A stretch of 27,221 bases of DNA from an uncultured Acidimicrobiia bacterium (GCA_963836205.1 CAWIIV010000003.1:1-27221); one strand, 5' to 3'. Positions 1 through 22,337 are shown, counted from the first letter of the stretch. The notes: generated from the sequence alone by a model not told the origin. Numbers and translations: made by a program.

Positions 1-160
1 AGCATGTCGAGGAGGTAGGCCAGCACCGACGGCGCCAGCGTGTTCTCGTGGCCCCGGGCGCAGCGGGAGCGGTAGAGGCCGCCGTGGTCGCCGGGCGGGA
101 TGAGGTCGGCCAGCAGCCAGCACGTGGGGCAGGGGACGACTTCGTCGTCCGGCCCATCAT
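1..160 (-). CDS. Partial small hypothetical protein with Cys/His motif, running off the window edge; start probably frameshifted
   Basis: One minus frame reads DGPDDEVVPCPTCWLLADLIPPGDHGGLYRSRCARGHENTLAPSVLAYLLDM with GC3-rich codons. The ATGATG at 160, which overlaps the stop of the upstream gene, is out of that frame. Confidence 0.4.
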   Translation of the reverse strand, partial: MMGRTTKSSPAPRAGCWPTSSRPATTAASTAPAAPGATRTRWRRRCWPTSSTC

Positions 161-471
161 GCCGCCTTCGGCGGGGCCGACTCGGCGGAGGAGGCCGAGT
201 CGACGTCGGTGAAATCGAAGATGGCGTCGAACGGGAAGGCCGACTCCACCGCCGCCCGGGTGTCGGCTTCCTCGATCAGCCCGGTCATCGACTCGCCCGA
301 CATCATGGCGATGACGAGGGCGAGGGCAGCAACGTGGCCCGCCTCCCAACCGTCGCCGTAGCCGGTGAGGTAGTCGAACGTGGGGGCTTCCGGCGCCACC
401 TTGCCCACCGCCCAGTGGCGGGCGGCGGCGTTCTGCAGGAATCCTCGGCACAAGCTCTCGATGTCATCCAT
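157..471 (-). CDS. Hypothetical protein, 104 aa
   Basis: ATG preceded by GAGAGGAG Shine-Dalgarno; host-like codon usage; no family recognised. Confidence 0.7.
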   Translation of the reverse strand: MDDIESLCRGFLQNAAARHWAVGKVAPEAPTFDYLTGYGDGWEAGHVAALALVIAMMSGESMTGLIEEADTRAAVESAFPFDAIFDFTDVDSASSAESAPPKAA

Positions 472-500
472 CGTGCCGCTCCTCTCTGGGCGTCATCCCC

Positions 501-950: not shown

Positions 951-1178
951 ATGGCCACCCGGCGCTTCGTCAGGAGAGCGGAGGAATGGACTGAGGTCGC
1001 CCGCTGGCTGGGTGTCTTCTGGTTCTGCCGCTGCCACTACAGCAACGTCGCCAGCTACCGCTGCTACTACTGCGGGAAGCGGGCGCCGGCAGAGGTCCGC
1101 ACCCTGGTGATCGACACCCTCCGGGCCGCGGAGCGGGTCGAGATCCCGGCCCCCGTACCGGTCTCCGCCCGTCATTAG
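951..1178 (+). CDS. Small zinc-ribbon protein, 75 aa
   Basis: 3' part of ORF 525..1178 from ATG 951; contains WFCRCHYSNVASYRCYYCGKR (W-x-C-x-C-x3-N-x5-C-x2-C, RanBP2-like spacing). Confidence 0.6.
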   Translation: MATRRFVRRAEEWTEVARWLGVFWFCRCHYSNVASYRCYYCGKRAPAEVRTLVIDTLRAAERVEIPAPVPVSARH

Positions 1179-1227: not shown

Positions 1228-2250
1228 ATGGAGCAGGTGCCGGTCCTGTGGCTCACCGCCGGCCTCAGTTGTGACGGCGACTCGATCGCCATGACCGCCG
1301 CCACCCAGCCCAGCCTGGAGGACCTCGTGCTGGGCGCCTTCCCCGGTGTGCCCCGCGTCCGTTTCCACCACCCGGTGCTGGCCTACGAGGTGGGCGACGA
1401 GTTCCTGGCCGGGTTCGAGGACGCGGCGGCGGGCAAGCTCGACCCCTTCATCCTGGTCATCGAGGGCTCCATCCCCGACGAGACGGGCAACGAGGAGGGG
1501 TGTTGGGCCGGCTTCGGCACCGACCCCGCGACCGGCCAGCCCATCCCCACCACCACCTGGGTCGACCGGCTCACGGCCAAGGCGTGGGCGGTGATGGCGG
1601 TGGGCACCTGCGCCGCCTACGGCGGCATCCACGGCATGGCCGGCAACCCCACCGGCGCCATGGGCCTGGCCGACTACCTGGGCTGGGACTGGCGCTCGCA
1701 GGGCGGCATGCCCATCGTCAACCTGCCCGGCTGCCCGATCCAGCCCGACAACTGCACCGAGACCCTGCTCTACCTGGTCCGCCAGCTGGCCGGGCTGGCC
1801 CCGCCGATCCCGCTCGACCACGTCCTGCGCCCCAAGTGGCTGTTCGGCCAGACCCTCCACGAGAACTGCGACCGGGGCGGCTACTACGAGCAGGGCGACT
1901 TCGCCGGCGAATACGGGTCGTCCAAGTGCATCGTCAAGCTCGGGTGCTGGGGACCGGTGGTCGACTGCAACGTGGGCAAGCGGGGGTGGATGAACGGCGT
2001 CGGCGGCTGCGCCAACGTCGGCGGCACGTGCATCGGCTGCACCATGCCCGGCTTCCCCGACAAGTTCCAGCCCTTCCTCGACGAGCCCCCGGGGGCGAGG
2101 ATGTCGTCGTCGGCGGTGCTGCTCTACGGACGGTCGGTACGGGCCCTGCGCAACGTGACCCGTGCGTCGATGAACGTCGAACCGGAGTGGCGAGGGCCGC
2201 TGCCGAAGGGACTGCGGACCGCGGGCGACGACCCGCCGACCGGCGGGTGA
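1228..2250 (+). CDS. hhyS: Group 1h (group 5) [NiFe]-hydrogenase small subunit
   Basis: LWLTAGLSCDGDS, GTCAAYGG, PGCPIQPD, HENCDRGGYY, KCIVKLGCWGP and GGCANVGGTCIGCTMPGFPD Fe-S motifs; no Tat signal, as is typical of Hhy. Confidence 0.95.
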   Translation: MEQVPVLWLTAGLSCDGDSIAMTAATQPSLEDLVLGAFPGVPRVRFHHPVLAYEVGDEFLAGFEDAAAGKLDPFILVIEGSIPDETGNEEGCWAGFGTDPATGQPIPTTTWVDRLTAKAWAVMAVGTCAAYGGIHGMAGNPTGAMGLADYLGWDWRSQGGMPIVNLPGCPIQPDNCTETLLYLVRQLAGLAPPIPLDHVLRPKWLFGQTLHENCDRGGYYEQGDFAGEYGSSKCIVKLGCWGPVVDCNVGKRGWMNGVGGCANVGGTCIGCTMPGFPDKFQPFLDEPPGARMSSSAVLLYGRSVRALRNVTRASMNVEPEWRGPLPKGLRTAGDDPPTGG

Positions 2251-4019
2251 CCGACACCGGCCCCCACCTGGTCGACAAGACGTGGGACCCGATCACCCGC
2301 ATCGTCGGCAGCCTCGGCATCCACGCCCGCATCGACTTCCGTGACCGCAAGGTGGTGCGCTGCCACAGCACGTCGTCGATCTTCCGGGGCTACAGCGTGT
2401 TCATGAAGGGCAAGGACCCCCGCGACGCCCACCAGATCACCAGTCGCATCTGCGGCATCTGCGGCGACAACCACGCCACCGCCTCCGTCTACGCCCAGCA
2501 GATGGCCTACGGGATCAAGCCCCCGCACCTGGCCGAGTGGATCGTCAACCTGGCCGAGGCGGCCGAGTACATGTTCGACCACAACCTCTACCAGGAGAAC
2601 CTGGTGGGGGTGGACTTCTGCGCCCGCATGGTGGGGGAGACCAACCCCGCGGTGCTGGCCCGGGCCGAGGTCACCGAGTCGCCCCACGCCGACGTCCACG
2701 GCTACCGCACCATCGCCGACATCATGCGGGCGTTCAACCCCATGGAGGGTGCCCTCTACCTGGAGGCGCTCAAGATGAGCCGCCTCACCCGGGAGATGTT
2801 CTGCCTGATGGAAGGGCGCCACGTCCACCCGTCGCTGTTGTACCCGGGCGGCGTCGGCACCGTGCCCACGGTCCAGCTCTTCGACGACTACCTGGTGCGG
2901 CTGGTGAAGTACGTCGAGCACCTCAAGCGCATCGTCCCTCTCCACGACGACCTCTTCGACTTCATGTACGAGGCCCTGCCCGGTTACGAGGAGGTCGGCC
3001 GGCGGCGGGTGCTGCTCGGCTCGTGGGGCTCGTTCCAGAACCCGGAGACGTGCGACTTCCGCTACGACCACATGACCTCGTGGGGCCGCGACATGTTCGT
3101 CACGCCCGGCATCGTGGTCGACGGCGATCTGGTCACCACCGACCTGGTCGAGATCAACCTGGGGATGCGGATCCTGCTCGGCAGCTCGTTCTACGAGGAC
3201 TGGGCCGAGGGGGAGACCTTCGTCACCCACGACCCCCTGGGCCACCCCGTCGACCAGCGCCATCCCTGGAACCAGACCACCTCGCCCCGGCCCCAGCGGC
3301 GCAACTTCGAGCCGGGCGGCCACTACACGTGGGTGATGTCGCCCCGGTGGCTCGATGCCCGCACCGGAGAGCATCTCGCCCTCGACACCGGCGGAGGCCC
3401 CCTCGCCCGGCTGTGGGTCACCGCCCTGGCCGGCCGGGTGCACACCTCCTACGTCGACGCGCCGGGCGACGGGTCGGTGCGCATCCGCCTCCCCCGCACC
3501 GCCCACCTACCCGAGACCGAGCTCACCTGGCGGGTGCCGCGGTGGTCGAACACCATCGAGCGCGACCGGGCCCGCACCTACTTCCAGGCCTACAGCGCGT
3601 CCATCGCCTTCCACTTCCTGGAACAGGCGATGGCGGAGGTGAGCGCGGGCCGGCTCGACGTGTGGACGCCGTTCGAGGTGCCCGACGAGGCCGTCTCGTG
3701 CGGGTTCCACGAGGCGGTACGGGGCGTCCTGTCCCACCACATGGTGATCCGCAAGGGCCGCATCGCCAACTACCACCCGTACCCGCCCACCTGCTGGAAC
3801 GCCAGCCCCCGGGACTCGTTCGGCACCGCCGGCCCCTATGAGGACGCGGTCGCGGGATCGCCGGTGTTCGAGGAGAACGGGGCCGACCAGTTCAAGGGCA
3901 TCGACATCATGCGCACCGTCCGCAGCTTCGACCCCTGCCTGCCCTGCGGCGTCCACCTCTATCTGGGCGGGGGAAAGGTGCACCGGGCCCTCCACGGCCC
4001 CACGCTCGGGGTCCGGTGA
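2247..4019 (+). CDS. hhyL: Group 1h [NiFe]-hydrogenase large subunit, 590 aa
   Basis: GTG overlapping the hhyS stop (GTGA); WDPITRIVGSLG, L1 TSRICGICGDNH, L2 SFDPCLPCGVH plus a 20-aa C-terminal extension. Confidence 0.97.
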   Translation: MTDTGPHLVDKTWDPITRIVGSLGIHARIDFRDRKVVRCHSTSSIFRGYSVFMKGKDPRDAHQITSRICGICGDNHATASVYAQQMAYGIKPPHLAEWIVNLAEAAEYMFDHNLYQENLVGVDFCARMVGETNPAVLARAEVTESPHADVHGYRTIADIMRAFNPMEGALYLEALKMSRLTREMFCLMEGRHVHPSLLYPGGVGTVPTVQLFDDYLVRLVKYVEHLKRIVPLHDDLFDFMYEALPGYEEVGRRRVLLGSWGSFQNPETCDFRYDHMTSWGRDMFVTPGIVVDGDLVTTDLVEINLGMRILLGSSFYEDWAEGETFVTHDPLGHPVDQRHPWNQTTSPRPQRRNFEPGGHYTWVMSPRWLDARTGEHLALDTGGGPLARLWVTALAGRVHTSYVDAPGDGSVRIRLPRTAHLPETELTWRVPRWSNTIERDRARTYFQAYSASIAFHFLEQAMAEVSAGRLDVWTPFEVPDEAVSCGFHEAVRGVLSHHMVIRKGRIANYHPYPPTCWNASPRDSFGTAGPYEDAVAGSPVFEENGADQFKGIDIMRTVRSFDPCLPCGVHLYLGGGKVHRALHGPTLGVR

Positions 4020-4037
4020 CCCCGGGTCGGTGACCGA

Positions 4038-5543
4038 GTGAGCGACACCGGCCCCGTCGACGTGGCCGGGCTGGAGGCGCACCTGGCGGCGATGGCCGTC
4101 GGCGACAGCGAGGCCCTGGAGGCCATGCTCCGCCTGGCCGAGGTGGTCTTCCCGGGACGGGTGGGCATCGGCGACCGGGAGCGAGTCGTGTGGCCGACCG
4201 CCGGCCACCACCACGGTGGCGCCGCCCATCCGGGCGACGACGCCGACCTCAGCGAGCGCGACCAGCTGGCCGCCAACGTGCGTCGATCGGAGGTCCGCTT
4301 CCAGTCCCTCGTGGAACAGGTGCCGGCGGTGGTGTTCTCCGCCGCCCTCGGCGACGCCGACAACGAGGTCTACGTCAGCCCCCACATCGAGACCGTGCTC
4401 GGGTTCACCCAGCAGGAGTGGCTGACCAACCCCCTCCTCTGGTACTCCCAGCTCCACCCCGACGACCACGACGTGGTGATCGAGGCCTTCACCCGGGGCG
4501 TGCAGACGGGGGGGCCGTTCCGGGCCGAGGTGCGCTTCATCTCCCGCGACGGCGAGGAGGTCTGGATCCTGGGCGAGGCCCGCCTCATCCGCGACGACGC
4601 CGGCCGGTTGGCCTACTTCCAGGGCGTGGGCTTCGACATCACGCCGTCCAAGCGGGCGCAGGCGATGATGGCGGAGGCCGAGCACGTCCGGGTGGAGGCG
4701 GCCCAGCTCCTGGCCGAGGTCTACGCCGCCCGCAACGTGGAGCTGGCCGAGCTCAACGAGCAGCTACGGGTGGCGGTGGACCAGGCGGAGGCGGCCGAGG
4801 CCCTCCAGCGCCAGCTCCTGGCCCGGGAGCGGGAGGTCGTCGACCGCCTGACCCGCCTCGACCGCGACAAGAACGACTTCGTGTCCAGCGTCAGCCACGA
4901 GCTGCGGACGCCCGTCACCAGCATGCTGGGCTACCTGGAGATGCTCGGCGACGGCGACGCGGGGCCGCTCAACGTCCAGCAGACCCGCATGCTGGAGGTG
5001 ATCAGCCGCAACAGCCGGCGGCTCCTCAACCGCATCGAGGACCTGCTGACGGTGTCGGGCGTGGAGGCGGGCAAGATCCGGCTGACGCTGACGCCGGTGG
5101 CGGTTCCACTGCTGATCGAGTCGGCGGTGGCGGCCATGGCCCCGGCCCTGTCGGGACGGGAGCTGAAGCTCACGGTCGACGTGGCCGACGACGCCATGAC
5201 CGTCACCGCCGACGCCGAGCACCTCGACCGGGTCCTCATCAACCTGTTGAGCAACGCGGTCAAGTTCACGCCCGACGGCGGCCGGATCTCGGTCTCGGTG
5301 GGCCGGCAGGGCGACACGGTGGCGCTGGTGGTGGCCGACACCGGCCTCGGCATCCCCGAGGACGAGCAGTCGCGGGTCTTCGAGCGGTTCTTCCGGTCGT
5401 CCAACGCCCAGGAGCTGGCCATCGCCGGCACCGGGCTGGGCCTGGTGATCGTGAAGGGGATCGTCGAGCTCCACGGGGGGGCGGTGGCACTGCGGTCGAC
5501 CCCCGGCGTCGGCACCGAGGTCACCATCAGCCTCCCCGCCTGA
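4038..5543 (+). CDS. Cytoplasmic PAS/PAC-domain sensor histidine kinase
   Basis: PAS (YVSPHIETVLGF, LHPDD, RDGEEVWI, FDIT), probable coiled coil, H-box SHELRTP, N-box NLLSNAVKF, DTGLGI, FERFFR, GTGLGL; no transmembrane segment seen. Confidence 0.95.
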   Translation: MSDTGPVDVAGLEAHLAAMAVGDSEALEAMLRLAEVVFPGRVGIGDRERVVWPTAGHHHGGAAHPGDDADLSERDQLAANVRRSEVRFQSLVEQVPAVVFSAALGDADNEVYVSPHIETVLGFTQQEWLTNPLLWYSQLHPDDHDVVIEAFTRGVQTGGPFRAEVRFISRDGEEVWILGEARLIRDDAGRLAYFQGVGFDITPSKRAQAMMAEAEHVRVEAAQLLAEVYAARNVELAELNEQLRVAVDQAEAAEALQRQLLAREREVVDRLTRLDRDKNDFVSSVSHELRTPVTSMLGYLEMLGDGDAGPLNVQQTRMLEVISRNSRRLLNRIEDLLTVSGVEAGKIRLTLTPVAVPLLIESAVAAMAPALSGRELKLTVDVADDAMTVTADAEHLDRVLINLLSNAVKFTPDGGRISVSVGRQGDTVALVVADTGLGIPEDEQSRVFERFFRSSNAQELAIAGTGLGLVIVKGIVELHGGAVALRSTPGVGTEVTISLPA

Positions 5544-5559: not shown

Positions 5560-5606
5560 AAAAGGGCGCCCACTCGGCTGACGGCGGACCAGCCGAGAAG
5601 GGCGCC
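5560..5606 (-). terminator. Intrinsic terminator-like hairpin between convergent genes
   Basis: Minus strand GGCGCCC-TT-CTCGGCTG-(9 nt loop)-CAGCCGAG-T-GGGCGCC followed by CTTTT. Confidence 0.55.
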
Positions 5607-5723: not shown

Positions 5724-6014
5724 TCACGGGTGGTGGAACGAGGGGGCGCCGGGGACGAGGAAGGCGACCTCGTCGACGTAGCACCACCACCACTCCTCAC
5801 CGGGCTCGTAGGTCTGGATCAGGGGGTGGGCGGTGCTGCGGAAGTGGGCGGTGGCGTGGCGGTTGGGGGAGCTGTCGCAGCAGCCCACGTGGCCGCACGC
5901 CATGCACAGCCGCAGGTGGACCCACCGCCCGCCGATGGCCAGGCAGTCCTCGCACCCGTCGGCGTGGGGCGAGACGGCGGCGGCCTGGTCGAGATGGGTG
6001 CAGGTGTCGGGCAT
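5724..6014 (-). CDS. UBP-type zinc-finger protein, 96 aa
   Basis: CTHL, GCEDC, WVHLRLCMACGHVGCCDSSPNRHATAH and EPGEEWWWCYVDE motifs; ATG at 6014. Confidence 0.9.
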   Translation of the reverse strand: MPDTCTHLDQAAAVSPHADGCEDCLAIGGRWVHLRLCMACGHVGCCDSSPNRHATAHFRSTAHPLIQTYEPGEEWWWCYVDEVAFLVPGAPSFHHP

Positions 6015-6031
6015 GGGTCCCCTCTGGTGTA

Positions 6032-7432
6032 TCAGCCTCGGGCGCAGGATGTTCCCGGACGGCGGGCGGCGGTCGACCAGTCGGGATCGTCGGTGCGGGG
6101 CCAGTAGTCGCCGGTCCCCGGGTCCTGGTCGTAGGGGACGGGCGGGTCGTCGCCACCGGCGATGGCGGCTACGGCGGCCAGGAAGCGGTCGATGTCGGCC
6201 GCAGTGGTCGACAGCCCGGCGCTGGCCCGCACCGCGCCCGGGATGTGGCGCCGGTCGCCCCGAAGCACGGCCGACCGGTACGAGGCGACCTCGCCCTCGT
6301 CGAGGCCGAGCAGGCGCAGGAGGTAGGGGTGGGCGCAGAAGCACCCGTGGCGGACGCCGATGGCGTGCTCCGCGCTCAGCCGGGCCGCGACCAGGGCGTG
6401 GTGGACGCCGTCGACCACGAACGTGGCCAGGGGCAGGGTGGGCGCCCCCAGGGCCGGGCCCAGCAGGTGCACGCCGTCGATGGCGGCCAGCCCGTGGCGG
6501 AGGCGGTCGGCCATGGCGTCGTCGTGGGCGACGATGGCGGGCCAGCCGAGCTTGGCCAGCTCGTCGATGGCGGCGTGGAGGGCGATCGCGCCCACGACGT
6601 TGGGCGAGCCCGCCTCCTCCCGCTCGGGCGGGTCGGTCCACACCACCTCGTCGAGGTCGACCAGGTCGACGGCCCCCCCGCCGGCCAGGAAAGGGTCGCC
6701 CGTCTCGAAGGTCGACCGGGGGCCGACCAGGACGCCCCCGCCGTAGGGGGCGTACATCTTGTGGCCGCTCCAGGCGAGGAAGTCGGCGCTGGCGGGAAGC
6801 GGGCGGTGGGCCGCCAGCTGGGCCGCGTCGACCAGCACCGGGATTCCCCGCTCGTGGGCGGCGGCCACGATGTCGTCGGTGGGTGGAATCCAGCCGGTGA
6901 CGTTGGACGCACCGGTGACGGTCAGCAGCCGGGGCCGGGGCCCGTCGTCGAGGACGGCCGCCACGTCGTCGGCGTCGAAGGTGCCGTCGGGCCGGCACTC
7001 CACGTACCGGCGGCGGGCCAGGCGGGCCCAGGGGAGGAGGTTGGCGTGGTGCTCGACGACGGTGGTGACCACGACGTCGTCGGGCGCCAGCCGCAGCCGG
7101 TAGGCGAGGTGGTTGACGGCCTCGGTGGTGTTGCGGCAGATGATGGCCACGTCGGTGGCCTCGTTCTTGCCGGCGAAGGCGAGGGCCGCGGCCCGGGCCT
7201 CCTCGTACTCGGCGGTGGCGAGCTGCGACTTCCACCCCGCCCCCCGGTGCACGCTCGAGTACTGGGGCATGAAGTCGGCGACCCGCTGGGCGACGGCCGG
7301 CAGGGCACTGGTGGACGCGGCCGCGTCGAGGGACAGGTAGGGCCGCTGGAGACCGTCGATGCAGGGTGCGCTCAGGCCGTCGCCGACCAGCTCGACGCCG
7401 AGACTGTCGCCTTCCGGCGCCTGATCCGGCAC
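6032..7432 (-). CDS. Class V aminotransferase, SufS-type cysteine desulfurase-like
   Basis: LDAAAST, YSSVHRG, EHHANLLPW, DAAQ, SGHKMYAP (PLP Lys), EAGSPN, RHGCFCAHP (catalytic Cys motif). Confidence 0.9.
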   Translation of the reverse strand: MPDQAPEGDSLGVELVGDGLSAPCIDGLQRPYLSLDAAASTSALPAVAQRVADFMPQYSSVHRGAGWKSQLATAEYEEARAAALAFAGKNEATDVAIICRNTTEAVNHLAYRLRLAPDDVVVTTVVEHHANLLPWARLARRRYVECRPDGTFDADDVAAVLDDGPRPRLLTVTGASNVTGWIPPTDDIVAAAHERGIPVLVDAAQLAAHRPLPASADFLAWSGHKMYAPYGGGVLVGPRSTFETGDPFLAGGGAVDLVDLDEVVWTDPPEREEAGSPNVVGAIALHAAIDELAKLGWPAIVAHDDAMADRLRHGLAAIDGVHLLGPALGAPTLPLATFVVDGVHHALVAARLSAEHAIGVRHGCFCAHPYLLRLLGLDEGEVASYRSAVLRGDRRHIPGAVRASAGLSTTAADIDRFLAAVAAIAGGDDPPVPYDQDPGTGDYWPRTDDPDWSTAARRPGTSCARG

Positions 7433-10975: not shown

Positions 10976-11434
10976 CGACGACAACGTCGCGCGATATGGC
11001 ACGAGAGCGCCACCCGTAGCCGTCGTTCTGGTCGCGCTTGGGGACGTAGCGATGCGAGGATCGCGAGCCCGTCGTGCGTCGCCTACCCGATCGCAGCTAA
11101 TCCGCGTAGCCCGCGAGAGCGGAGTTGAACTACGTCGATGGACGTCGTCACTATCGCCGTCAACGACAACGAAAGGCTCGGCTTCGCCATGGAGGACAGC
11201 GCCCGGTCGCGGGAGAGGTGCTCGTCCGTTCCGGACATCCAGCTGCTGAGTCTCGCAGCGAACCTCGCTCGCGAGGACGCCGATTTCCCATCGCTGGGAC
11301 CATGGAAGCGAATACGCCCGACGACCCCGTCGGGGCCTCTATGTCTTCCGTTCCTCCTGCACGCTCCTCGTCATGCTGGGCTGGCCGCGGCCTGACGTGT
11401 CGCCCGCGTATGCTCACTGGCGTGACTCCATTAC

Positions 11435-12703
11435 GTGGAACGCTATCCGAGCGCTAACGGGGTGGATCCTTACGACGTCTTCGTACCGGCTGGCTTACCG
11501 ACCATCACCTACAACCCACGCGAGTCGACTGGATTAGAAGACAAGATCCGGCAATACCTCAGGGCGCCGCATAGTATCCTGACAATCTCCGGTCACACAA
11601 AAAGCGGTAAGACCGTATTGTTGAAGAACGTCCTCACCGACGAGCACGTCTGGCTTGAGGGCTCATCGATCAGTTCGGAGAAGGATATCTGGACGCAGCT
11701 CGCTTACGCCATGGGCATATACGAGACGGAGCATTCCAGTTTGACTCACTCGACGGCGGATGACTCCGGACGCTCGGCCGGACTCAACGTTCCAGTTGCG
11801 CAGACGTCGCGTTCACATCAAGAGCGTGAAAGCATCGAGAGGTCTCGGGACCACACGCGAGTGGTACCCGTACAGGCCTCCGTCATCAACAAATTGAAGC
11901 GCTCGCCAATTCCGATAGTAATCGACGACTTTCATTTTGTCAGTGGCGAGACGCAGGAAAGGTTTGTACGCGGCATTAAGCCTTGCCTCCTCCACGGGCT
12001 GCCCGTTGTCTTGCTTGTAGTACCTCACAAAGCGAATGAGGCGGTTCAGGCAGAACCGGAGATGAGCGGTAGAGTCACGAATGTCCGGGTGCCGCCCTGG
12101 CGCGCCGACGAGCTGCGACGAATCGCCCAACTTGGGTTTAGCGCACTCAACGTCGAGCTGTCCGAGGGCTTGATGGACGACTTTGTGGATCAGTCTGCCG
12201 GTAGCCCGCTACTAATGCAGCAGTTCTGCCTTCAAGTCCTGATCTCCAGTGGGCGCCGTAGCGTTGTGTCGGGCATTACACACCTATCTCTCGCCGATCG
12301 AAGCGAATTCTTTGTTCAATGTGCGGAGGCTCTGACGGTTTCGATGGACTTCTATCGGATGTCGAGAGGTTCTCTCCGTGGCTCCGGAAGCAGGAAACAA
12401 ATGCTCGGCTCCTGGGGAGAAGAGGCCCGCGATATCTACGGGGTGGTCATGAACGCGATCACTGAGTGCTCTCCGAGTAACGCCATCACGTACCGACAGC
12501 TTCGAGCCTCGTTGGCCAGGTCGATCCGACCGGAGGACATGCCACGAAAGAACCAAGTTACAAGAGCCCTCCGTGAAATAGATAAGATTGCACGGCAGTC
12601 AACCGGGTCGCCGGTTCTTGAATGGGATGCGCGCGACGAGGTCCTTTACATTGTGGACCCGTTCTTCGCCTTTTTTGTCCATTGGGTGGCGCCAGGACTG
12701 TGA
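11435..12703 (+). CDS. P-loop (AAA+/STAND-like) ATPase with probable C-terminal winged helix
   Basis: Walker A GHTKSGKT, Walker B IVIDDFH, GSPLLMQ GxP helix, C-terminal VLEWD...LYIVDPFF. Confidence 0.85.
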   Translation: MERYPSANGVDPYDVFVPAGLPTITYNPRESTGLEDKIRQYLRAPHSILTISGHTKSGKTVLLKNVLTDEHVWLEGSSISSEKDIWTQLAYAMGIYETEHSSLTHSTADDSGRSAGLNVPVAQTSRSHQERESIERSRDHTRVVPVQASVINKLKRSPIPIVIDDFHFVSGETQERFVRGIKPCLLHGLPVVLLVVPHKANEAVQAEPEMSGRVTNVRVPPWRADELRRIAQLGFSALNVELSEGLMDDFVDQSAGSPLLMQQFCLQVLISSGRRSVVSGITHLSLADRSEFFVQCAEALTVSMDFYRMSRGSLRGSGSRKQMLGSWGEEARDIYGVVMNAITECSPSNAITYRQLRASLARSIRPEDMPRKNQVTRALREIDKIARQSTGSPVLEWDARDEVLYIVDPFFAFFVHWVAPGL

Positions 12704-12756
12704 CGGAAGGACACGCACGCAAGCGATGACAACTCACTACTGGAAGACATCCACTC

Positions 12757-13869
12757 ATGGGTAAGACGCATCGAGTACTGCTAATTACGACGGGCGGATC
12801 ACTCATCGCTGGCCTAGTCGCATCGGAACGAGGTCATTCCTCGCACGGTGGTAAGGATGCCGATGTTGAGCGGCTCGTTAGCCCTGCGATCGACTTTCTA
12901 AACCGCCAGTTCGGCCTTAACATAGAGTTGGAAACTGTCGCACTGTACGACATTGAGAGTTCTGATCTCGGACCGACGCATTGGAGCGAACTCGCTGGCC
13001 TGATCGCAGAGCGCTATGATGACTACGACTCCTTTATTGTCTTCCACGGGCGCAGCACATTAGGTTATACGGCGGCGGCCCTCTCATTCGCGTTAGCGAA
13101 TCCCAACAAGCCTATCTTGTTGACGGGATGCCAGCTGCCGTTTGGTGTGCCGGGCTCAGACTGTCTCAGCAACATTGAGAACGCACTCCGCCTGGCCGTT
13201 TGGAGCCGACACGATCGAGTTCCACTGGTCGGTGTCTTTGTCGTGTGGGGAGGCGAAGTCATCACTGGAACCCGAGTGAGAAATACTTCATCGACTTATG
13301 ACTCGTTCGAGTCGTCTAGCTTAGGAAAAGTTGGGCGAGTGGGTCGCGTGATCACCATCAACGAGTTGAGCCTCCAGCGCCACCTTGGCTATCTAAGTAC
13401 CAACATGTATCCTCGAGCCCATTCAAGTAGAAGCTTGATATGCCAAAACGACTTTGACATGCGGATCGCCTCGCTGACGGAGTTTCCCGGCATGTCGATG
13501 ACGCAACTGAGCAGGCTTGCCAACGACGACGACGTCAAGGGTTTCATCATTCGTTCGTTCGGAGCGGGGGCGCCAAGTTCCGACCTGATTCGGACCCTCG
13601 AGCACTTAAGAGATCGGCAGATACCCGTAGTCATCACTTCACAAACGGAATATGAGATCAGCAACTTCCTCGCGAACGAGTCCGGAATTGTTCTTCGTAA
13701 TAGGAGTCTCGCTATTCCTGCGTACGACATGAGTATTGAAGCTCAGACGACGAAGTTGGGTTGGTTACTCGCCCGCCAGCGGTCCGGCCAGATTGGGTAC
13801 GAGGGAGTTTGTGCTGAGATGGTTCATGATTTGCGCGGGGAAATCCAGGTCATGTGGGACGTCGGATGA
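12757..13869 (+). CDS. Type I L-asparaginase-fold protein with degenerate active-site motifs
   Basis: LLITTGGSL, IESSDL, HGRSTLGYTAAALSF, KPILLTGCQ, FGAG, IPVVITSQ, DMSIEAQTTKLGWLL, DLRGEI are collinear with AnsA-type enzymes. Confidence 0.85.
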   Translation: MGKTHRVLLITTGGSLIAGLVASERGHSSHGGKDADVERLVSPAIDFLNRQFGLNIELETVALYDIESSDLGPTHWSELAGLIAERYDDYDSFIVFHGRSTLGYTAAALSFALANPNKPILLTGCQLPFGVPGSDCLSNIENALRLAVWSRHDRVPLVGVFVVWGGEVITGTRVRNTSSTYDSFESSSLGKVGRVGRVITINELSLQRHLGYLSTNMYPRAHSSRSLICQNDFDMRIASLTEFPGMSMTQLSRLANDDDVKGFIIRSFGAGAPSSDLIRTLEHLRDRQIPVVITSQTEYEISNFLANESGIVLRNRSLAIPAYDMSIEAQTTKLGWLLARQRSGQIGYEGVCAEMVHDLRGEIQVMWDVG

Positions 13870-13889
13870 ATCGATCAGGACGGCGGGAC

Positions 13890-14054
13890 TCAGGACGCGT
13901 CTTCCGGCATCCCCATCGCTACATTTGGCCAGCCGAACTAGACCAGATGGGTCGCATCGCTGGCTTCACGCTCGAGAGCCGCCACGGCGGCTGGAACGCT
14001 GAGCCCTTCACGGCGGACTCATCGGATCACGTACCCATCTATCGCGTCGCCTGA
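13890..14054 (+). pseudogene. 3' fragment of an actinobacterial class I SAM methyltransferase
   Basis: HRYIWPAELDQMGRIAGFTLESRHGGWNAEPFTADSSDHVPIY matches the C-terminal pattern I recall for that family; no SAM-binding N-terminus. Confidence 0.65.
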
Positions 14055-15468: not shown

Positions 15469-15966
15469 CCCGGGCGAGAAATGGGCGGGGATTGGCTGAC
15501 TGGTCCGGCACCGAACGGGGTAAGGGAGGCCCGATGACGGGCCGGTATACAACGGTGACCACGGCATCGGCGGTAGCCGGTGCCCCCACGGAAGCGCACC
15601 CGCCCCGGGCGACCGGCGGGGCTCGTCCGTACCGTCCGCACCCTCACGGGCCCGAACGGCCTCCGAAACATCGCCCCGCCGAGCATCCGACCGCGGTGGC
15701 CGTGTCCGTCCGAGATCCGCACCTCACCTCCTAAGCGGTCGGACTCCTCGCATGGCAGCCTCGCCGAGGACACCTCGGCTGACCCGGGTACTTCCCTCGA
15801 CCCTCTCGCCGCGTGCGGAGTCCTCTCCCGCGCCCCACCGGCACGACCTGCAGCCACGCGGGCCGATCCACCACCGCCAGCCCCTGCACCCCTGCTAGGC
15901 GCCATGGGCGTTCGCTCCCTTCCGCCCCCTTCCGAGTGGGCCGCCGTCCCCGAGAGGAGCGCGGAG

Positions 15967-17004
15967 GTGCCCCGGCTCCCCCCCCGCCGCAAAACCCACG
16001 GCCGACACCCCCGCCGCAGCCGGGCCCTGGCCGCCATCGGCCGCACCCCCCTCGTCGACGTCGCCCTGCGGGTGGACGGCCGGTGGCGCCGGGTGGGGTT
16101 GAAGCTCGAGTCGCACAACCCGGCCGGCTCGATCAAGGACCGGACGGCGTACTCCCTGATCCGCAGCCTGGAACGCATGGAGGAGCTGCGGCCCGGTGAC
16201 CGCCTGGTCGAGTCCACCTCGGGAAACCTGGGGGTTGCGCTGGCCCTGATCAGCCGGGAGCGGGGCTACACCTTTACCGCGGTCGTCGATCCCAAGGTCG
16301 ACCCGCTGGTCGTCGATCGGATCCACGGCCTGGGGGCGGAGGTCGTCCTGACCGACGAGGTCGACGCCACCGGCGGCTACCTGCTGTCGAGGCTCCGGTT
16401 GGTGGAGCAGATGGTGGCCGAGGACGGCACGGTCTGGCCCAACCAGTACGGCAACCCGGCCAACCCGGCGGTCCACTACCACCACACCGCACCCGAGGTC
16501 CGCCGCCAGGCGCCCGACGTCGACGCGGTGTTCGTGGCCACGTCGACCGGCGGCACCCTCGCCGGCTTCGGCCGCTACTTCAAGGCCGTCAGCCCGCGGG
16601 TCCGGGTGGTGGCGGTCGACGTGCCCGGCTCGCTGGTGTTCGGCACCACCTACGCCCCCCGCCTGCTCAACGGGGTGGGGTCGAGCCGCGCCTCTCAGTT
16701 CCTGAGCCCCGCCGACTACGACGACGTCGTCATCGTAGGCGACAGGGACGCCGTCGCCGCGTGCCACCTCATCCAGGGGTCGGTGGGCATCGGGCTGGGC
16801 GGCTCGTCGGGGGCGGTGGTGGCTGCCTGCGCCCGCTACCTGTCCGCCCATCGCGAGGTGCGACGGGCCGTGTGCATCTGCCCCGACGGGAGCGCCAACT
16901 ATGCCAGCAGCATCTACGGCACCTCCTGGCTGGCCCGGTTCGGCTTCCGCCCGGAGAAGGACGCGGCCGAGCTTCCCTTCGACGACGCCGTACTGGCCCG
17001 GTGA
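15967..17004 (+). CDS. sbnA: SbnA-like PLP enzyme of the cysteine synthase family (2,3-diaminopropionate biosynthesis)
   Basis: KLESHNPAGSIKDR, ESTSGNLG, SbnA-type GGYLLSRL, WPNQYGN, GSLVFG...GVGSSR, GGSSG. Start uncertain: GTG 15967 after GAGGAG, or ATG 15904. Confidence 0.85.
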   Translation: MPRLPPRRKTHGRHPRRSRALAAIGRTPLVDVALRVDGRWRRVGLKLESHNPAGSIKDRTAYSLIRSLERMEELRPGDRLVESTSGNLGVALALISRERGYTFTAVVDPKVDPLVVDRIHGLGAEVVLTDEVDATGGYLLSRLRLVEQMVAEDGTVWPNQYGNPANPAVHYHHTAPEVRRQAPDVDAVFVATSTGGTLAGFGRYFKAVSPRVRVVAVDVPGSLVFGTTYAPRLLNGVGSSRASQFLSPADYDDVVIVGDRDAVAACHLIQGSVGIGLGGSSGAVVAACARYLSAHREVRRAVCICPDGSANYASSIYGTSWLARFGFRPEKDAAELPFDDAVLAR

Positions 17005-18059
17005 GCGGCAACGGCGCCGGAGGCGCAACCCGCCCGCTGGAGAACGGCCTGCTCTACCTGAGCGAGGATGACGTCGATCAGGCCTGCCGGGAGGTCGACC
17101 CGGTGGCGTGTGTCGCCGACGCGCTGGCCCGGCTGGCGGCGGGTGAGGCCGAGGTCCCCGACGAGGCGGTGCTGCGCTGGGACCCCCGAGGCGGAGGCAT
17201 GGCCCGCACCCTGAACATGCCCGGGTTCATCGCCGGCCCGGTCCCGGTCCTGGGCACCAAGATCATCAACGCCAGCACCGAGAATCCCAGCCGGGGCCTG
17301 CCCCGGGCGGCCGGCCTGACCCTGCTGTTCAATCCCGTCACCGCCCGCCCCGAGGCGATCATCCAGGCCGCCGGCATCAGCGCCCTGCGGACGGCGGCGG
17401 TGTCGACCCTCGCCGCCCTCCACCTGCGCACCACCGGCCCCCAGACCCTGGGGGTCATCGGCGCCGGCCCCATCGCCCGGGCCCATGTCCTGCTGCTGGC
17501 GGAGCACATCGACCTCGAGCGGGTGCTGGTGTGCGACCACGCCACCGACCGGGCCCTCGGCCTCGTCCACCAGCTGCGGGAGGAGCCGAGGATCAGGCAG
17601 GTCGAGGAGCGGAGCGACCCGGAGAAGACCGTCCGCGACGCCACCATCGTGGTCACCGCCACCACGACCACCACCGCCTACGTCTGCCACGACTGGCTGC
17701 GGCCGGGCGCGGTGGTCGTCAACGTGTCCCTCGACGACGTGGAGGAGGAGGCCTACCTGCGGGCCGACCGGCTCTACGTCGACCATTGGGGCCTGGTCGT
17801 GGCCGACACCCAACGGCTGCTGGGCCGCCTGGCGCGGGCGGGCAAGGTCTGCGGACCGGGAGAGAGCGGCGAGGCCGGCGCCCGCCCGGTGGACGGGACC
17901 CTGGGCCAGTTGGTCACCGGAGCCTGCCCGGCTCGGGACGACGACGGCCAGATCATGCTCGTCAACCCCTTCGGCATGTCGATCGAGGACCTTTCCATCG
18001 CCAGCCGGGTCTACGAGATCGCCCTGCTCCGCAACTACGGTCTGTTCCTCGACCAGTGA
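17001..18059 (+). CDS. sbnB: SbnB-like ornithine cyclodeaminase/mu-crystallin family protein, 352 aa
   Basis: GTGA coupling; LLYLS, NMPG, NPSRGLPRA, ISALRTAAVS, GAGPIA, VNPFGMSIEDL. Confidence 0.8.
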   Translation: MSGNGAGGATRPLENGLLYLSEDDVDQACREVDPVACVADALARLAAGEAEVPDEAVLRWDPRGGGMARTLNMPGFIAGPVPVLGTKIINASTENPSRGLPRAAGLTLLFNPVTARPEAIIQAAGISALRTAAVSTLAALHLRTTGPQTLGVIGAGPIARAHVLLLAEHIDLERVLVCDHATDRALGLVHQLREEPRIRQVEERSDPEKTVRDATIVVTATTTTTAYVCHDWLRPGAVVVNVSLDDVEEEAYLRADRLYVDHWGLVVADTQRLLGRLARAGKVCGPGESGEAGARPVDGTLGQLVTGACPARDDDGQIMLVNPFGMSIEDLSIASRVYEIALLRNYGLFLDQ

Positions 18060-18983
18060 CCGCCCGCAGCATCATCTCCCTCGAGGACATCTCCACCGAC
18101 GACCTTCGCTGGCTGGCGCACCGGGGGTGTGCCTATGCCGAGGGCGCGGCCGTCGAGCGGGTGCTCTCCGGGCGGGTGGTGGCCGTCTACTTCCGGCAGA
18201 CCTCCACCCGCACCCGCACCGCCTTCTCCGCCGCCGCCCTCCGCCTGGGAGCCCAGAATCCTCACCTTCGGGCCCCACGACCTCCAGACCAACACCGGCG
18301 AGACCTACCTCGACACCGGCCGGGTGCTGGCCACCATGGTCGACGCCCTGGTGGCTCGCACCGCGGGCGACCCCGATGAGCTGCGCGACTTGGCCGCCCA
18401 GGGCCGGATGCCGGTCGTCAACGCCATGACATCCGACGAGCACCCGACCCAGGCCGTCGCCGACCTCGCCACCCTGCTCCAACACTTCGGACGTATCGAC
18501 CACCTGCGGGTCCTCTACCTGGGGGAGGGCAACAACTCCGCCTCCGCCCTGGCCCTGGCCCTGTCCCGGTTCCCCGGAAACGAGCTCTACCTGCGGACTC
18601 CTGCCGGCTACGGCCTGGCCGACGACAAGTTGAAGCTGGCGTGCGGCCACGCCGACGAGACCGGGAGCGTGGTCGACGAGCGTCACGACCTGGAGGGGCT
18701 CCCGGAGGCGGTCGACGCCGTCTACACCACCCGCTGGCAGACGACGGGCACCGCCAAGCCCGATCCCGACTGGCACGAACGCTTCCGGCCCTTCCAGGTG
18801 AACGACGACCTGATGGCTCGCTGGCCCGACGCCCGGTTCCTGCACGACCTGCCCGCCCACCGGGGCGAGGAGGTCACCGCCGAGGTGCTCGACGGCCCCG
18901 CCAGCCTGGCCCTGCCCCAGGCGGCCAACAAGTACCACACCGCCCTGGCCATCCTCGAGTGGTGCCTGGCCGGACCCCGATGA
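18056..18983 (+). CDS. OTC-fold carbamoyltransferase, frameshifted near 18257
   Basis: From GTG 18056 the frame gives TSTRTRTAF...LGAQ; removing one A at 18257-18258 continues into ILTFG...EHPTQ...GEGNN...TTRWQTTG...HDLPAHRGEEV...QAANK. Confidence 0.85.
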
Positions 18984-19897
18984 CCGCGGCCTGCCTCGAC
19001 CGGGTGTCGGCCTACCGCCACCTCACCGTCGCCGACCGGGACCCGCCCGACCGTCGGGGCATCTTCTTCGACCCGATCGACACCGAGGTCGGCGCCTGGG
19101 CGACCGTCGACCTGGTCGAGGAGGGGTCCACCGTCCTCGACCTCGGATCGGGCGGCGGCGCCGCGGCCGCGGCGGTGGCCAGGGCCGGGGCGGCCCACGT
19201 CCACGGCGTCGACATCTCCGAGGAGAGCGTCCGGTGGGCGTCGGAGCACCATGCCCTCGACGGGCCCGCCCGGCGGGTCACCTTCGGGCCGGCCGACTAC
19301 GCCTCGCTGACGACCTCCGCCCTGCTGGCGGCCACGCCCCTGTCCCGACCCCCGGACGTGGTGGCCAGCAACCCGCCCTACGTGCCGGTCCCACCGGTCG
19401 ACGGCTCGGGACGGGTCTCCATCGACGGCGGCCCCGACGGTCTCCGCCTGGTGCGGATCGTGGTCGGCCACGCCGAGGCGCTCGGGTCGGCGCTGTCGCT
19501 CACCATCGGCAGCTACTCCTCGCCCCGGCGGGCGGCTGCGTTGCTGGCCGGCTGCGGCTACCGGATCGCGGGCGTCACCCTGGCCGCGCTTCGCCTGGGC
19601 GACTACACCGTGCAGCACATGGACCGCGTCCTCTCCCTCGAATCGGCGGGGGAGGGACCCCTGCTGCGCACCGACGACGGCGCCGTCTCCTACCTGTGCG
19701 TGGGGCTCTCCTGCCGCCGGGACGCCGCGGACGACGCCGACGGCGGGCTCTCTCCGGACGGGTTGCTCCGCCTCCTCGACCATGCCTGCCGATCGCGGAC
19801 CACCCACCTGGAGGCCCTCGACCGGGCCACCGCCGCCTGCCCCGTCCCGGTGCGGGTGCTGGTCCTGCCCGAGGAGCACCGGCGTCACCATTGCTGA
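18980..19897 (+). CDS. Class I SAM methyltransferase, HemK/MTS-like, 305 aa
   Basis: ATGA coupling; VLDLGSGGG, GVDIS, SNPPYVP, DGGPDG. Confidence 0.85.
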   Translation: MTAACLDRVSAYRHLTVADRDPPDRRGIFFDPIDTEVGAWATVDLVEEGSTVLDLGSGGGAAAAAVARAGAAHVHGVDISEESVRWASEHHALDGPARRVTFGPADYASLTTSALLAATPLSRPPDVVASNPPYVPVPPVDGSGRVSIDGGPDGLRLVRIVVGHAEALGSALSLTIGSYSSPRRAAALLAGCGYRIAGVTLAALRLGDYTVQHMDRVLSLESAGEGPLLRTDDGAVSYLCVGLSCRRDAADDADGGLSPDGLLRLLDHACRSRTTHLEALDRATAACPVPVRVLVLPEEHRRHHC

Positions 19898-21021: not shown

Positions 21022-21251
21022 CGAACGAGGTCGAGGCGACCATCACGGCCTATCCCGACGGCCCCTACCTGGTGCGCGGGTGCTACACGATCGTCGACGT
21101 CGACGGGACCGTGATCGAGACGGCGCGCCGCACGGTGGCCCTCTGCCGCTGCGGCCGCTCGGGTCAGAAGCCCCTGTGCGACGGGTCGCACGCGGCCTCG
21201 TCGTTCAGGGACTCGGCGCGGCGCCAACGGGCCGATCGGCCCCGTCCCTGA
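21018..21251 (+). CDS. CDGSH iron-sulfur domain protein, 77 aa
   Basis: DGPYLVRG...ALCRCGRSGQKPLCDGSH; GTGA coupling. Confidence 0.9.
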   Translation: MTNEVEATITAYPDGPYLVRGCYTIVDVDGTVIETARRTVALCRCGRSGQKPLCDGSHAASSFRDSARRQRADRPRP

Positions 21252-22281: not shown

Positions 22282-22313
22282 GACCGCAGACGCCGGGGGA
22301 CGGCCGCCCAGGC

Positions 22314-22331: not shown

Positions 22332-22337
22332 CGCCGT

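Follow-up and report, generated by a model that had tools for sequence, protein, structure and literature searches.

Among the closest described counterparts of the locus reported here is the sensory group 2b system HoxBC-HoxJ-HoxA of Cupriavidus necator (HupUV-HupT-HupR in Rhodobacter), in which a small subunit, a large subunit and a soluble PAS histidine kinase are encoded in this order. The known sensory enzymes of group 2b are markedly different from uptake hydrogenases. Group-1h enzymes (actinobacterial type), such as HofKG of C. necator and Hhy of M. smegmatis, oxidise the trace H2 of the atmosphere with high affinity and are insensitive to O2. In the [FeFe] enzymes of group C, hydrogenase and signalling parts are fused. 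In its table passages, the HydDB description lists as putative sensory classes the diguanylate cyclase-linked [NiFe] group 2c and the kinase-, chemotaxis- and phosphatase-linked [FeFe] groups C1-C3; these passages give no signalling-linked class within group 1h (PMC5037454). Where regulation of Hhy enzymes is addressed in two recent papers, the regulators are described as unknown and expression is said to follow starvation (PMC13098282, PMC13289019).

The window analysed here, i.e., the whole 27,221-nt stretch of DNA from an uncultured Acidimicrobiia bacterium, carries on its plus strand hhyS (1228..2250; 340 amino acids), hhyL (2247..4019; 590 amino acids, GTG start) and a kinase gene (4038..5543; 501 amino acids, GTG start). 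GTGA at positions 2247-2250 is common to the end of hhyS and the start of hhyL, and 18 nt (4020-4037) separate the hhyL stop from the kinase start. These coordinates and the Pfam domains of the kinase (PAS_3, residues 111-197; HisKA, 278-344; HATPase_c, 392-500) confirm the arrangement described in an earlier sequence-only reading of the window. The three genes would be co-transcribed, and the transcription unit probably includes a small upstream Cys4 ORF (951..1178, plus strand; 75 amino acids, CxC...CxxC motif), which lies 49 nt upstream of hhyS and with which the unit may begin. This ORF occupies the same position, with 70-89% identity, in five of the six most closely related loci (type-A loci; L001-L005, not L006), and a Pfam search assigned it to no family. 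Pfam likewise found no family for a conserved, divergent ORF of 111 amino acids (157..492, minus strand), whose synteny with the unit is seen in type-A loci too (68-74% identity in L001-L005). Since the genes downstream of the kinase lie convergently on the opposite strand, the unit ends at the kinase. A terminator-like hairpin had been proposed at this position: a nested G+C-rich stem-loop does follow the kinase stop (about 5565..5606, plus strand), but its terminator nature found no support, as its folding is indistinguishable from chance (z = -0.97 against shuffled sequence, with an equally good fold in 36 of 200 shuffles), it has no U-tract, and it coincides with no site in a terminator scan. 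Our tentative interpretation, which we favour while giving it somewhat less than an even chance, is that the three genes and, probably, the Cys4 ORF couple a group-1h hydrogenase to a phosphorelay, with the kinase reading the state of the hydrogenase. The close packing of the genes, with the GTGA overlap, the 18-nt gap and the convergent neighbours downstream, speaks for this interpretation.

Judged by sequence, both hydrogenase subunits are of the group-1h type. HhyS (Pfam Oxidored_q6 and NiFe_hyd_SSU_C) and HhyL (NiFeSe_Hases) have 5AA5 as their best solved relative, with 520 and 1010 bits, respectively, compared to about 140 and 160 bits for the next solved hydrogenase. We take 5AA5 to be the group-1h enzyme of C. 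necator (HofKG), an assignment that is consistent with the pHG1 locus. HhyS begins with MEQVPVLW, has no Tat-type leader, and retains every conserved Fe-S cysteine column as well as the CDGD motif; an Asp is a ligand of the proximal cluster. Two clade-specific cysteines, Cys92 and Cys176, occur besides the conserved columns. HhyL carries the cysteine pairs of the Ni-Fe site in the motifs RICGICGDNH and DPCLPCGVH and continues for 20 residues beyond CGVH. HofKG and M. smegmatis Hhy have the metal-site motifs, CDGD and the C-terminal tail in common with HhySL and likewise lack a Tat leader. Compared to 16 other group-1h large subunits, HhyL shows only about four fixed or near-fixed differences, namely the fixed K28R and F115Y, the near-fixed F170L, and a fixed one-residue gap near position 320. 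All three genes of the unit are under purifying selection, with dN/dS values of 0.07-0.15 for hhyS and 0.12-0.25 for hhyL. HhyL looks fully catalytic, with hardly any indication that its function has changed. By reasoning alone, ambient H2 would be expected to saturate a sensor based on a high-affinity enzyme or to keep it permanently on, unless the sensor reported flux or acceptor state, and this, like the retained tail with its requirement for proteolytic maturation, speaks against the coupling we favour.

Like HoxBC, the hydrogenase is predicted to be cytoplasmic and lacks a Tat leader, and the gene order within the unit is that of the 2b system. The next-closest relatives (type-B loci, L007-L009) resemble hoxA-hoxB-hoxC-hoxJ even in beginning with a receiver gene. 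However, HhyL is only 23% identical to HoxC, and HhyS 35% to HoxB, and HoxC ends at its CxxH motif (CTVH), where HhyL adds its tail. Based on the low identity and the kept tail, membership in group 2b was rejected. The kinase was likewise rejected as an orthologue of HoxJ or HupT: BLASTP aligns only residues 235-501 with HoxJ, at 28% identity, leaving the PAS regions unaligned, and Pfam assigns PAS_3 here but PAS/PAS_9 in HoxJ. Because the PAS domain of HoxJ is unrelated to that of this kinase, the HoxBCJ-like layout is convergent, as the earlier reading had suspected, and its remark that the enzyme keeps a tail that 2b enzymes lack, with no protease gene nearby, also stands. Unlike HoxBC-HoxJ-HoxA, the window encodes no response regulator, and none was found in type-A loci, which also counts against the coupling; receiver genes do occur in relatives of types B and C. 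The HydDB classes [NiFe] 2c and [FeFe] C1-C3 offer a further parallel, as they too combine a hydrogenase with signalling outputs that can be exchanged, but these are separate hydrogenase lineages, whereas the enzyme here is of the group-1h type; in contrast to [FeFe] group C, hydrogenase and signalling protein are separate polypeptides, the latter being characterised by a single PAS_3 subfamily.

The kinase starts with an N-terminal region (4038..4289, plus strand; residues 1-84), comprising a helix motif, EA..L..LA.V.FP, and a poorly conserved linker. In the alignment, the motif is shared by the majority of hydrogenase-linked PAS proteins, which come from several phyla, and the predicted model of the kinase places helices at residues 9-19 and 23-37, with low confidence for residues 43-64. 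The PAS_3 sensor domain follows (4290..4682, plus strand; residues 85-215), belonging to a hydrogenase-associated subfamily that was delimited in this analysis and is not a published family. Its predicted fold (pLDDT about 90 or more) matches generic LOV/FixL-type domains, and the domain contains no recognisable cofactor motif; both points weigh against the coupling we favour. The remaining part (4869..5537, plus strand), which consists of HisKA as dimerisation and phospho-acceptor domain with the H-box SHELRTP and of HATPase_c as catalytic domain, also contains the motifs DTGLGI and GTGLGL. No hydrophobic segment precedes the PAS domain, and the only Kyte-Doolittle peaks above 1.6 fall inside the catalytic domain; the kinase is therefore classified as soluble on sequence grounds. 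Among type-A proteins, the PAS domain is 88-95% identical, which equals the conservation of the hydrogenase subunits, compared to 76-83% for the kinase core.

The linkage between hydrogenase and kinase is conserved. All six orthologues of the kinase (74-82% identity; type-A loci, L001-L006) and all three next-closest hybrid kinases (43-47% identity; L007-L009) directly follow hhyS-hhyL, so that the three-gene order, which the earlier reading had proposed to trace across genomes, recurs in nine of nine closest kinase relatives, each from the genome of a different species, and is more than chance. No base separates the hhyL stop from the start of the kinase ORF in L007 and L008. L007-L009 also have a receiver-only gene before hhyS and a kinase bearing REC and Hpt domains, which places the hydrogenase genes within an operon for signalling. 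The flanks are syntenic across the six type-A loci as well (threonine dehydratase, SufS-like desulfurase, F420-type reductase), which would fit simple shared ancestry, i.e., a synteny inherited or accidental in a narrow lineage, with a kinase that has no functional tie to hhySL. We consider this very improbable, and the pattern across phyla already contradicts it. Using the kinase alone as query, 80 loci were fetched, 37 of which match the PAS domain (residues 85-215) and 43 the kinase core only. Group-1h genes occur in 29 of the 37 PAS-matching loci, but in none of the 43 core-only control loci (Fisher p = 7e-15). In the PAS tree, a branch with support 98 separates 28 linked domains and one unlinked domain from seven unlinked ones, and the PAS domain of the window falls on the side with 29 members. 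The linked PAS_3 domains come from six phyla, with different flanks and gene orders, and are attached to five types of output: HisKA, hybrid with Hpt, HisKA_2, HisKA_3, and SpoIIE/PP2C. The PAS_3 subfamily is thus specifically associated with group-1h genes, and it is the sensor domain, not the output, that travels with the hydrogenase, an association across phyla that goes beyond the earlier reading.

The tightest neighbour of the PAS_3 subfamily is the small subunit gene. In Acidobacteriota, a dedicated, extra hhyS paralogue lies directly 5' of the PAS gene in 11 of 11 loci, which the sequence-only reading had not foreseen; at the six loci with called ORFs (L032, L034, L036, L040, L055, L058), the two genes overlap by up to 11 nt or are up to 77 nt apart. 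All Fe-S cysteines are retained in nine intact paralogues, and the remaining two are a degenerate and a frameshifted copy. Seven of the 11 modules are followed by a canonical operon of its own standing (hhyS-hhyL-NifU-DUF5947-DUF6084-HycI), separate from the module, and in the two of these seven that were scanned with Pfam (L032, L055), a LuxR-type regulator stands between kinase(s) and operon. The PAS gene of Myxococcota and Planctomycetota stands at the end of the hyp cluster, after hypB or HycI and 3-5 kb from hhyS, a position that fits a plain regulator equally well and counts against the coupling we favour.

These arrangements bring in a second reading, which we regard as a serious though rather doubtful possibility: the kinase would be an ordinary cis-encoded regulator, whose PAS domain senses redox state, O2, or energy or carbon starvation and controls hhy transcription via an unlinked response regulator, while HhySL would be a working high-affinity uptake hydrogenase that sends the kinase no signal. 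Regulators are often encoded next to their targets, and type-C modules that immediately precede a full catalytic operon, partly with a LuxR-type regulator in between, as well as PAS genes at the end of a hyp cluster, agree with such a role. The near-identity of HhyL to canonical group-1h enzymes, including its maturation tail, points in the same direction, as do the unknown regulators and starvation-dependent expression in published accounts of Hhy (PMC13098282, PMC13289019). However, an ordinary regulator leaves unexplained why all 11 Acidobacteriota loci maintain a dedicated hhyS paralogue, mostly with intact Fe-S ligands, and why three of these paralogue-PAS pairs have no hhyL within about 10 kb (the L040 contig comprises only 6.7 kb). 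Nor does it account for the lack of accessory genes. NifU-like, DUF5947, DUF6084, HycI and hyp genes accompany the hydrogenase in all 15 complete canonical group-1h loci examined (Cupriavidus, Streptomyces, Embleya, Streptantibioticus, and 11 loci from genome collections), whereas the window has the kinase after hhyL instead. The observation of the earlier reading that hyp, endopeptidase and hhyE genes are missing from the 27 kb proved correct: a Pfam scan of the 30 window ORFs returned no maturation gene (no hyp, protease or NifU-like gene), and tblastn of the window with HycI, NifU-like, DUF5947, DUF6084 and HypA-E proteins from related loci found none. In L001-L009, the 10 kb to each side contained no accessory genes either.

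The phylogeny of the small subunit tracks PAS adjacency, which an ordinary regulator does not explain either. In the HhyS tree, every PAS-adjacent small subunit falls on one side of a branch, for which the support is moderate (80; SH-aLRT, quick search), and the mainstream subunits fall on the other, including the catalytic copies in five of five within-genome pairs from Acidobacteriota. The window's subunits are separated from mainstream group 1h: kinase-linked HhyS and HhyL each form their own clade with support 100, the outcome for HhyL being the one that the earlier reading had suggested looking for. A tree joining kinase-linked HhyS with mainstream Acidimicrobiales HhyS is rejected by the AU test (p = 2.7e-5), for a grouping named after the tree was seen. 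Together with the missing accessory genes, this separation could indicate that HhySL of the window is a dedicated sensor paralogue with little respiratory role, active only with the kinase and complemented by a mainstream catalytic Hhy elsewhere, which is the earlier reading in its strong form. On the contig of L004, a fragment of a second hhyS of the mainstream type lies 1.2 kb further upstream (80% identity to Embleya HhyS, 70% to the linked copy), and kinase-linked HhyL clusters have 1-7 members, while many mainstream HhyS clusters have hundreds to thousands. We nevertheless consider a dedicated sensor unlikely, since the second hhyS occurs in one relative only, as a fragment at the contig edge with no hhyL after it, the AU grouping was chosen post hoc, and HhyL has few clade-specific changes. 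The earlier interpretation of a 1h-derived sensory hydrogenase is partly supported: the conserved linkage, the separate clades, the convergent layout and the kept tail agree with it, while a nearly unchanged HhyL and the lack of a response regulator gene speak against the sensory role; HhySL may instead be a working enzyme that is monitored or regulated in addition.

For the coupling of hydrogenase and phosphorelay that we favour, the following mechanism can be envisaged. HhySL would oxidise H2 as a complete [NiFe] enzyme in the cytoplasm, with hyp and protease genes at other sites of the genome providing for its maturation. The soluble kinase, translated together with it, might read the state of the hydrogenase via its N-terminal helix and the PAS_3 domain, whose likeliest contact would be the Fe-S small subunit, through direct binding or electron transfer. 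Changes in autophosphorylation, putatively dependent on H2, could then be passed on as a signal to a response regulator encoded elsewhere, which would determine the output. The recurrence of this PAS_3 sensor beside group-1h enzymes in six phyla suggests a previously undescribed route by which soil bacteria sense or control hydrogen use. In Myxococcaceae, PAS_3-SpoIIE proteins adjoin hhy/hyp genes, in parallel to the phosphatase-linked class of [FeFe]-hydrogenases.

The hydrogenase-kinase unit of the window (G+C ~72%) consists of three consecutive genes, all read from the + strand: hhyS (1228-2250; 340 aa, Pfam Oxidored_q6 and NiFe_hyd_SSU_C), hhyL (2247-4019; 590 aa, GTG start, NiFeSe_Hases) and a kinase gene (4038-5543; 501 aa, GTG start, PAS_3, HisKA and HATPase_c). 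The hhyL start and the hhyS stop share a GTGA, and 18 nt separate the hhyL stop from the kinase; gene coordinates and Pfam domains agree with the sequence-only reading, which had described this overlap and the short gap to a soluble PAS-HisKA-HATPase kinase. Among solved structures, the closest match for both chains is 5AA5 (1010 and 520 bits; runner-up ~160 and ~140), the group-1h enzyme HofKG of C. necator; on the unit proteins, NCBIfam models of generic kinases and of other hydrogenase classes matched only below threshold. HhyL carries the motifs RICGICGDNH and DPCLPCGVH with 20 residues beyond the final His, HhyS has a CDGD motif and no Tat leader, and the kinase has an H-box (SHELRTP), the usual ATP-lid motifs and no hydrophobic segment N-terminal to its PAS domain. 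The absence of maturation genes noticed in the same reading extends to all families searched: no hyp, protease, NifU-like, DUF5947 or DUF6084 gene was found within the 27-kb window. The terminator-like hairpin proposed to follow the kinase is present as a stem-loop; its terminator character did not hold up, with a stability not above that of shuffled sequence (z = -0.97) and no U-tract. A terminator and promoter scan of the window gave nothing relevant, and an Rfam search of it gave 0 matches.

Conservation of this linkage was assessed by scanning a genome collection with the kinase, not the hydrogenase, as query, so that hydrogenase genes found nearby are independent of the query. From 341 pattern matches, 89 had an encoded relative, and the best 80 of these 89 loci (L001-L080) were retained and searched for HhyS and HhyL by tblastn. 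Kinase orthologues form ~25 protein clusters (66-89% identity over full length) from Acidimicrobiia/Actinomycetota MAGs, beyond which identity falls to ~47%, with hybrid kinases carrying REC and Hpt domains. The kinase lies directly after hhyS-hhyL at 6/6 loci with an orthologue (L001-L006, 74-82% identity) and 3/3 with a hybrid kinase (L007-L009, 43-47%), so that the linkage is indeed conserved in relatives. These loci represent type A (window and L001-L006; hhyS-hhyL-kinase) and type B (L007-L009; REC-hhyS-hhyL-hybrid kinase, then a MerR-like gene on the opposite strand); the receiver-only gene upstream of hhyS in type B is 74-75% identical among the three loci. Within 10 kb on either side, hyp or accessory genes were found at 0/9 of the loci L001-L009. 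HhyL and kinase matches on equal-sized contigs (13 sizes, plus the L002 contig), which do not imply adjacency, hint at further same-contig pairs. In a plasmid collection, 9 records matched hhyS/hhyL (76-80% identity) and none covered the kinase.

In other lineages, PAS genes accompany the hydrogenase in different arrangements. Type C (seven Acidobacteriota loci) comprises an hhyS paralogue, one or two PAS kinases and then a canonical operon (hhyS-hhyL-NifU-DUF5947-DUF6084-...-HycI-hypC), with a LuxR-type response regulator between kinase(s) and operon in L032 and L055, the two type C loci scanned with Pfam. In type D (L034, L036, L040), paralogue and PAS kinase are paired and hhyL is absent from the locus, which is only 6.7 kb long for L040, and L058 shows hhyL (in two frames), an hhyS paralogue and a PAS-GAF hybrid kinase in that order. 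The Myxococcota and Planctomycetota loci and L054 carry a canonical hhy/hyp cluster in which the PAS gene follows hypB, HycI or hypE, while canonical loci without a PAS gene (Cupriavidus, Streptomyces, Embleya, Streptantibioticus) read hhyS-hhyL-NifU-DUF5947-DUF6084-HycI-hyp. A Rokuibacteriota locus (L014) retains a 54-residue remnant of an hhyS N-terminus at 5881-6042; a PAS-PAS-GAF hybrid kinase, whose first PAS is 63% identical to that of the window, is encoded shortly downstream in another frame. The arrangement resembles an hhyS-(hhyL)-kinase unit in decay.

The association with group-1h genes is carried by the PAS_3 domain. When the kinase query was divided into its N-terminal part, the PAS domain (residues 85-215) and the kinase core, the PAS part was matched in 37/80 loci, 29 of which contain group-1h genes, compared to 0/43 loci that match the kinase core only (Fisher p = 7e-15). 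Of these 29, 26 have hhyS and/or hhyL; the other three are L014, counted on its hhyS remnant alone, and L017 and L022, at a contig edge, which are included on accessory genes only. The 29 loci belong to six phyla (Actinomycetota 9, Acidobacteriota 11, Myxococcota 5, Planctomycetota 2, Rokuibacteriota 1, Pseudomonadota 1), and hydrogenase genes are missing from the other eight PAS-matching loci (L033, L037, L066, L070 and L077-L080). A PAS tree of 36 sequences, 28 of them linked and 8 unlinked (with the near-copies L002, L004 and L006 omitted and a single PAS taken per unlinked multi-PAS protein), splits with support 98 into the 28 linked domains plus L033 versus the 7 other unlinked ones. Among type-A loci, the PAS domain is as conserved as the hydrogenase subunits (88-95% identity), compared to 76-83% for the kinase core and 53-65% for the N-terminal region. 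The outputs attached to linked PAS domains vary: HisKA, hybrid kinases with Hpt, HisKA_2 (Sorangium), HisKA_3 with additional PAS domains, and SpoIIE/PP2C (Myxococcaceae); an N-terminal helix motif, EA..L..LA.V.FP, is common to most of these proteins. Across the loci compared, this pattern makes a functional tie between the PAS_3 subfamily and group-1h hydrogenases very probable. In a Myxococcaceae hhy/hyp cluster, the PAS_3-SpoIIE (PP2C phosphatase) protein is encoded directly after hypB (L020:9962-11863), which suggests a partner-switching, not a two-component, output from the same sensor domain; SpoIIE is Pfam-confirmed in L020 only, and L021, L022 and L030 are presumed alike on tblastn.

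Several observations point to the small subunit as the putative partner of the PAS domain. The Acidobacteriota paralogues lie directly upstream of PAS genes, the two genes overlapping by up to 11 nt or lying up to 77 nt apart in the loci with called ORFs (L032, L034, L036, L040, L055, L058), and 9/11 are intact with all conserved Fe-S cysteines, the defective ones being L056 (degenerate) and L063 (split by a frameshift). In a 43-row HhyS tree, from which the degenerate L056 copy was omitted, a branch of moderate support (80) sets all PAS-adjacent small subunits (types A and B, paralogues, Myxococcaceae, Sorangium, Gemmataceae) apart from the mainstream ones, which include the catalytic copies of the same Acidobacteriota genomes, so that within-genome pairs are split in 5/5 cases. 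HhyS and PAS trees are partly congruent: both place Gemmataceae in the Acidobacteriota group and Sorangium near the Acidimicrobiia group. It is because ligand-complete paralogues sit directly upstream of PAS genes and the HhyS phylogeny tracks PAS adjacency that HhyS would be the partner, and for the same reason a signal from hydrogenase to kinase is tentatively favoured, at a little short of even confidence, over a plain cis-encoded regulator. The latter, a kinase that is encoded next to the hydrogenase and senses something else, is a less probable alternative. In structure prediction, residues 1-270 of the kinase (pLDDT 83) match only generic LOV/FixL-type PAS folds in the PDB, with no clue to a cofactor, the PAS alignment contains no conserved Cys or LOV-type motif, and a predicted complex of HhyS with these residues (score 0.00, without control runs) speaks neither for nor against binding.

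The kinase-linked large subunits form a clade across genomes, a point that the sequence-only reading had proposed to test: HhyL of types A and B is united with support 100 among 26 rows, including 16 other group-1h large subunits, and HhyS of types A and B likewise forms its own clade. A purely taxonomic explanation, with this clade as the Hhy form of Acidimicrobiia, was rejected, because mainstream Acidimicrobiales and Ilumatobacteraceae HhyS join Streptomyces, Rhodococcus and Thermomicrobium sequences (support 100) and stand well apart from the kinase-linked clade (support 100). A tree constrained to unite the two Acidimicrobiia HhyS groups is worse by 68 log-likelihood units (AU p = 2.7e-5); the united group was named post hoc from the unconstrained tree. 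One type-A contig carries a second hhyS fragment of mainstream type (L004:3-587), cut by the contig edge, with no hhyL after it and 1.2 kb upstream of a unit whose HhyL is 95% identical to that of the window. The fragment shares 80% identity with Embleya HhyS and 70% with the linked copy. It is closest to mainstream HhyS, among them sequences from Acidimicrobiales (89%) and Ilumatobacteraceae (85%), many of which belong to very large clusters; among the 120 matches listed, none is on a contig equal in length to that of a kinase or HhyL match, which is weak evidence either way on a second locus.

As judged by sequence comparison, kinase-linked HhyL appears hardly altered relative to other group-1h enzymes. 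Types A and B differ from 16 others by fixed K28R and F115Y, a fixed one-residue gap near 320 and a near-fixed F170L, and the tail beyond CGVH is kept in 26/26 HhyL sequences. Additional cysteines occur at residues 92 and 176 in HhyS of types A and B, the first being Ser in L008, and pairwise dN/dS relative to the window is 0.07-0.15 for hhyS, 0.12-0.25 for hhyL and 0.29-0.40 for the kinase. A strong form of the sensor reading, in which the HhySL of the window is a dedicated sensor, is judged unlikely, the alternative being a functional enzyme that is monitored as well. More generally, it is possible, if doubtful, that a widespread and so far undescribed class of sensors built on hydrogenases exists within group 1h, spanning at least six phyla, in which a small-subunit lineage would dock to PAS_3 and report H2 oxidation or electron back-pressure to a phosphorelay or PP2C; the docking subunit would be a dedicated HhyS paralogue or belong to a whole dedicated HhySL pair, as in the window.

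The closest parallel is the group 2b regulatory hydrogenase HoxBC of C. necator with its kinase HoxJ, and the type B order is the same as that of hoxA-hoxB-hoxC-hoxJ on pHG1. HoxJ aligns with the kinase over the core only (28% identity) and its PAS belongs to another Pfam family, HoxC is 23% identical to HhyL and lacks the tail, and HoxB is 35% identical to HhyS; the likeness is therefore one of layout, not descent, in line with the convergence that had been proposed. Biological removal of atmospheric H2 is mainly the work of group-1h hydrogenases. The HydDB table, in the excerpt of its paper (PMC5037454), gives 2b, 2c and [FeFe] C1-C3 as sensory or putatively sensory and group 1h as an uptake class only. 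How Hhy is induced is posed as a question in an excerpt of a 2026 study, with Hhy regulators unknown (PMC13098282), and a second one states that its signals and regulators are yet to be identified, framing the substrate as always available (PMC13289019). In the full-text literature, covering main texts outside subscription-only papers, no report of a kinase- or phosphatase-linked group-1h hydrogenase was found. The PAS module tied to group-1h enzymes in six phyla, a set that includes dedicated small-subunit paralogues and to which the window adds a stand-alone hydrogenase-kinase unit, provides concrete candidate regulators or sensors for Hhy, which can be tested in culturable carriers such as Sorangium cellulosum So ce26 (L025). 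Should the kinase receive its input from the hydrogenase, H2 sensing by a [NiFe] enzyme would have arisen a second time, independently, and would operate in air at trace H2, with a bearing on soil H2-sink models and O2-tolerant H2 biosensors. If the proposed sensor class exists, soil bacteria would be active sensors of trace H2, and substrate or flux, not starvation alone, would set how strongly high-affinity hydrogenases are expressed.

Several neighbours of the unit are conserved as well. A 75-aa ORF with a Cys4 motif (CxC...CxxC; 951-1178, + strand) lies 49 nt upstream of hhyS and is kept in L001-L005 with the motif CRC(H/R)YSNV(A/G)(S/T)YRCYYCG, as is a divergent, acidic 111-aa ORF (157-492, - strand); Pfam and NCBIfam gave no family for either or for several further window ORFs. 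After the kinase, the genes lie on the opposite strand: a small zf-UBP zinc-finger ORF and then a SufS-family cysteine desulfurase (6032-7432, - strand), a pair (5724-7432) convergent with the kinase that could, speculatively, serve Fe-S supply for the hydrogenase. Synteny extends to the desulfurase in L001-L004 and L006; the zf-UBP ORF is seen only in L003, and a Pyr_redox_2 gene lies between desulfurase and kinase in L001, L002, L004 and L006. Positions 11000-14000 form a low-G+C island (0.55-0.60 vs ~0.72), probably horizontally acquired, with a 422-aa ORF of no family (11435-12703) and a type-I asparaginase-like gene (12757-13869). A cluster at 15580-23168 resembles small-molecule biosynthesis and comprises SbnA-like and SbnB-like genes (2,3-diaminopropionate synthesis), an ornithine carbamoyltransferase-like gene, a methyltransferase, a YbdK-type carboxylate-amine ligase, a Haem_oxygenas_2 iron enzyme (minus strand) and a Peptidase_C26 gamma-glutamyl hydrolase. 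Further downstream, an unusual 701-aa fusion ORF (24856-26961) joins a beta-lactamase/transpeptidase-like domain to a Peptidase_S41 tail-specific protease domain.
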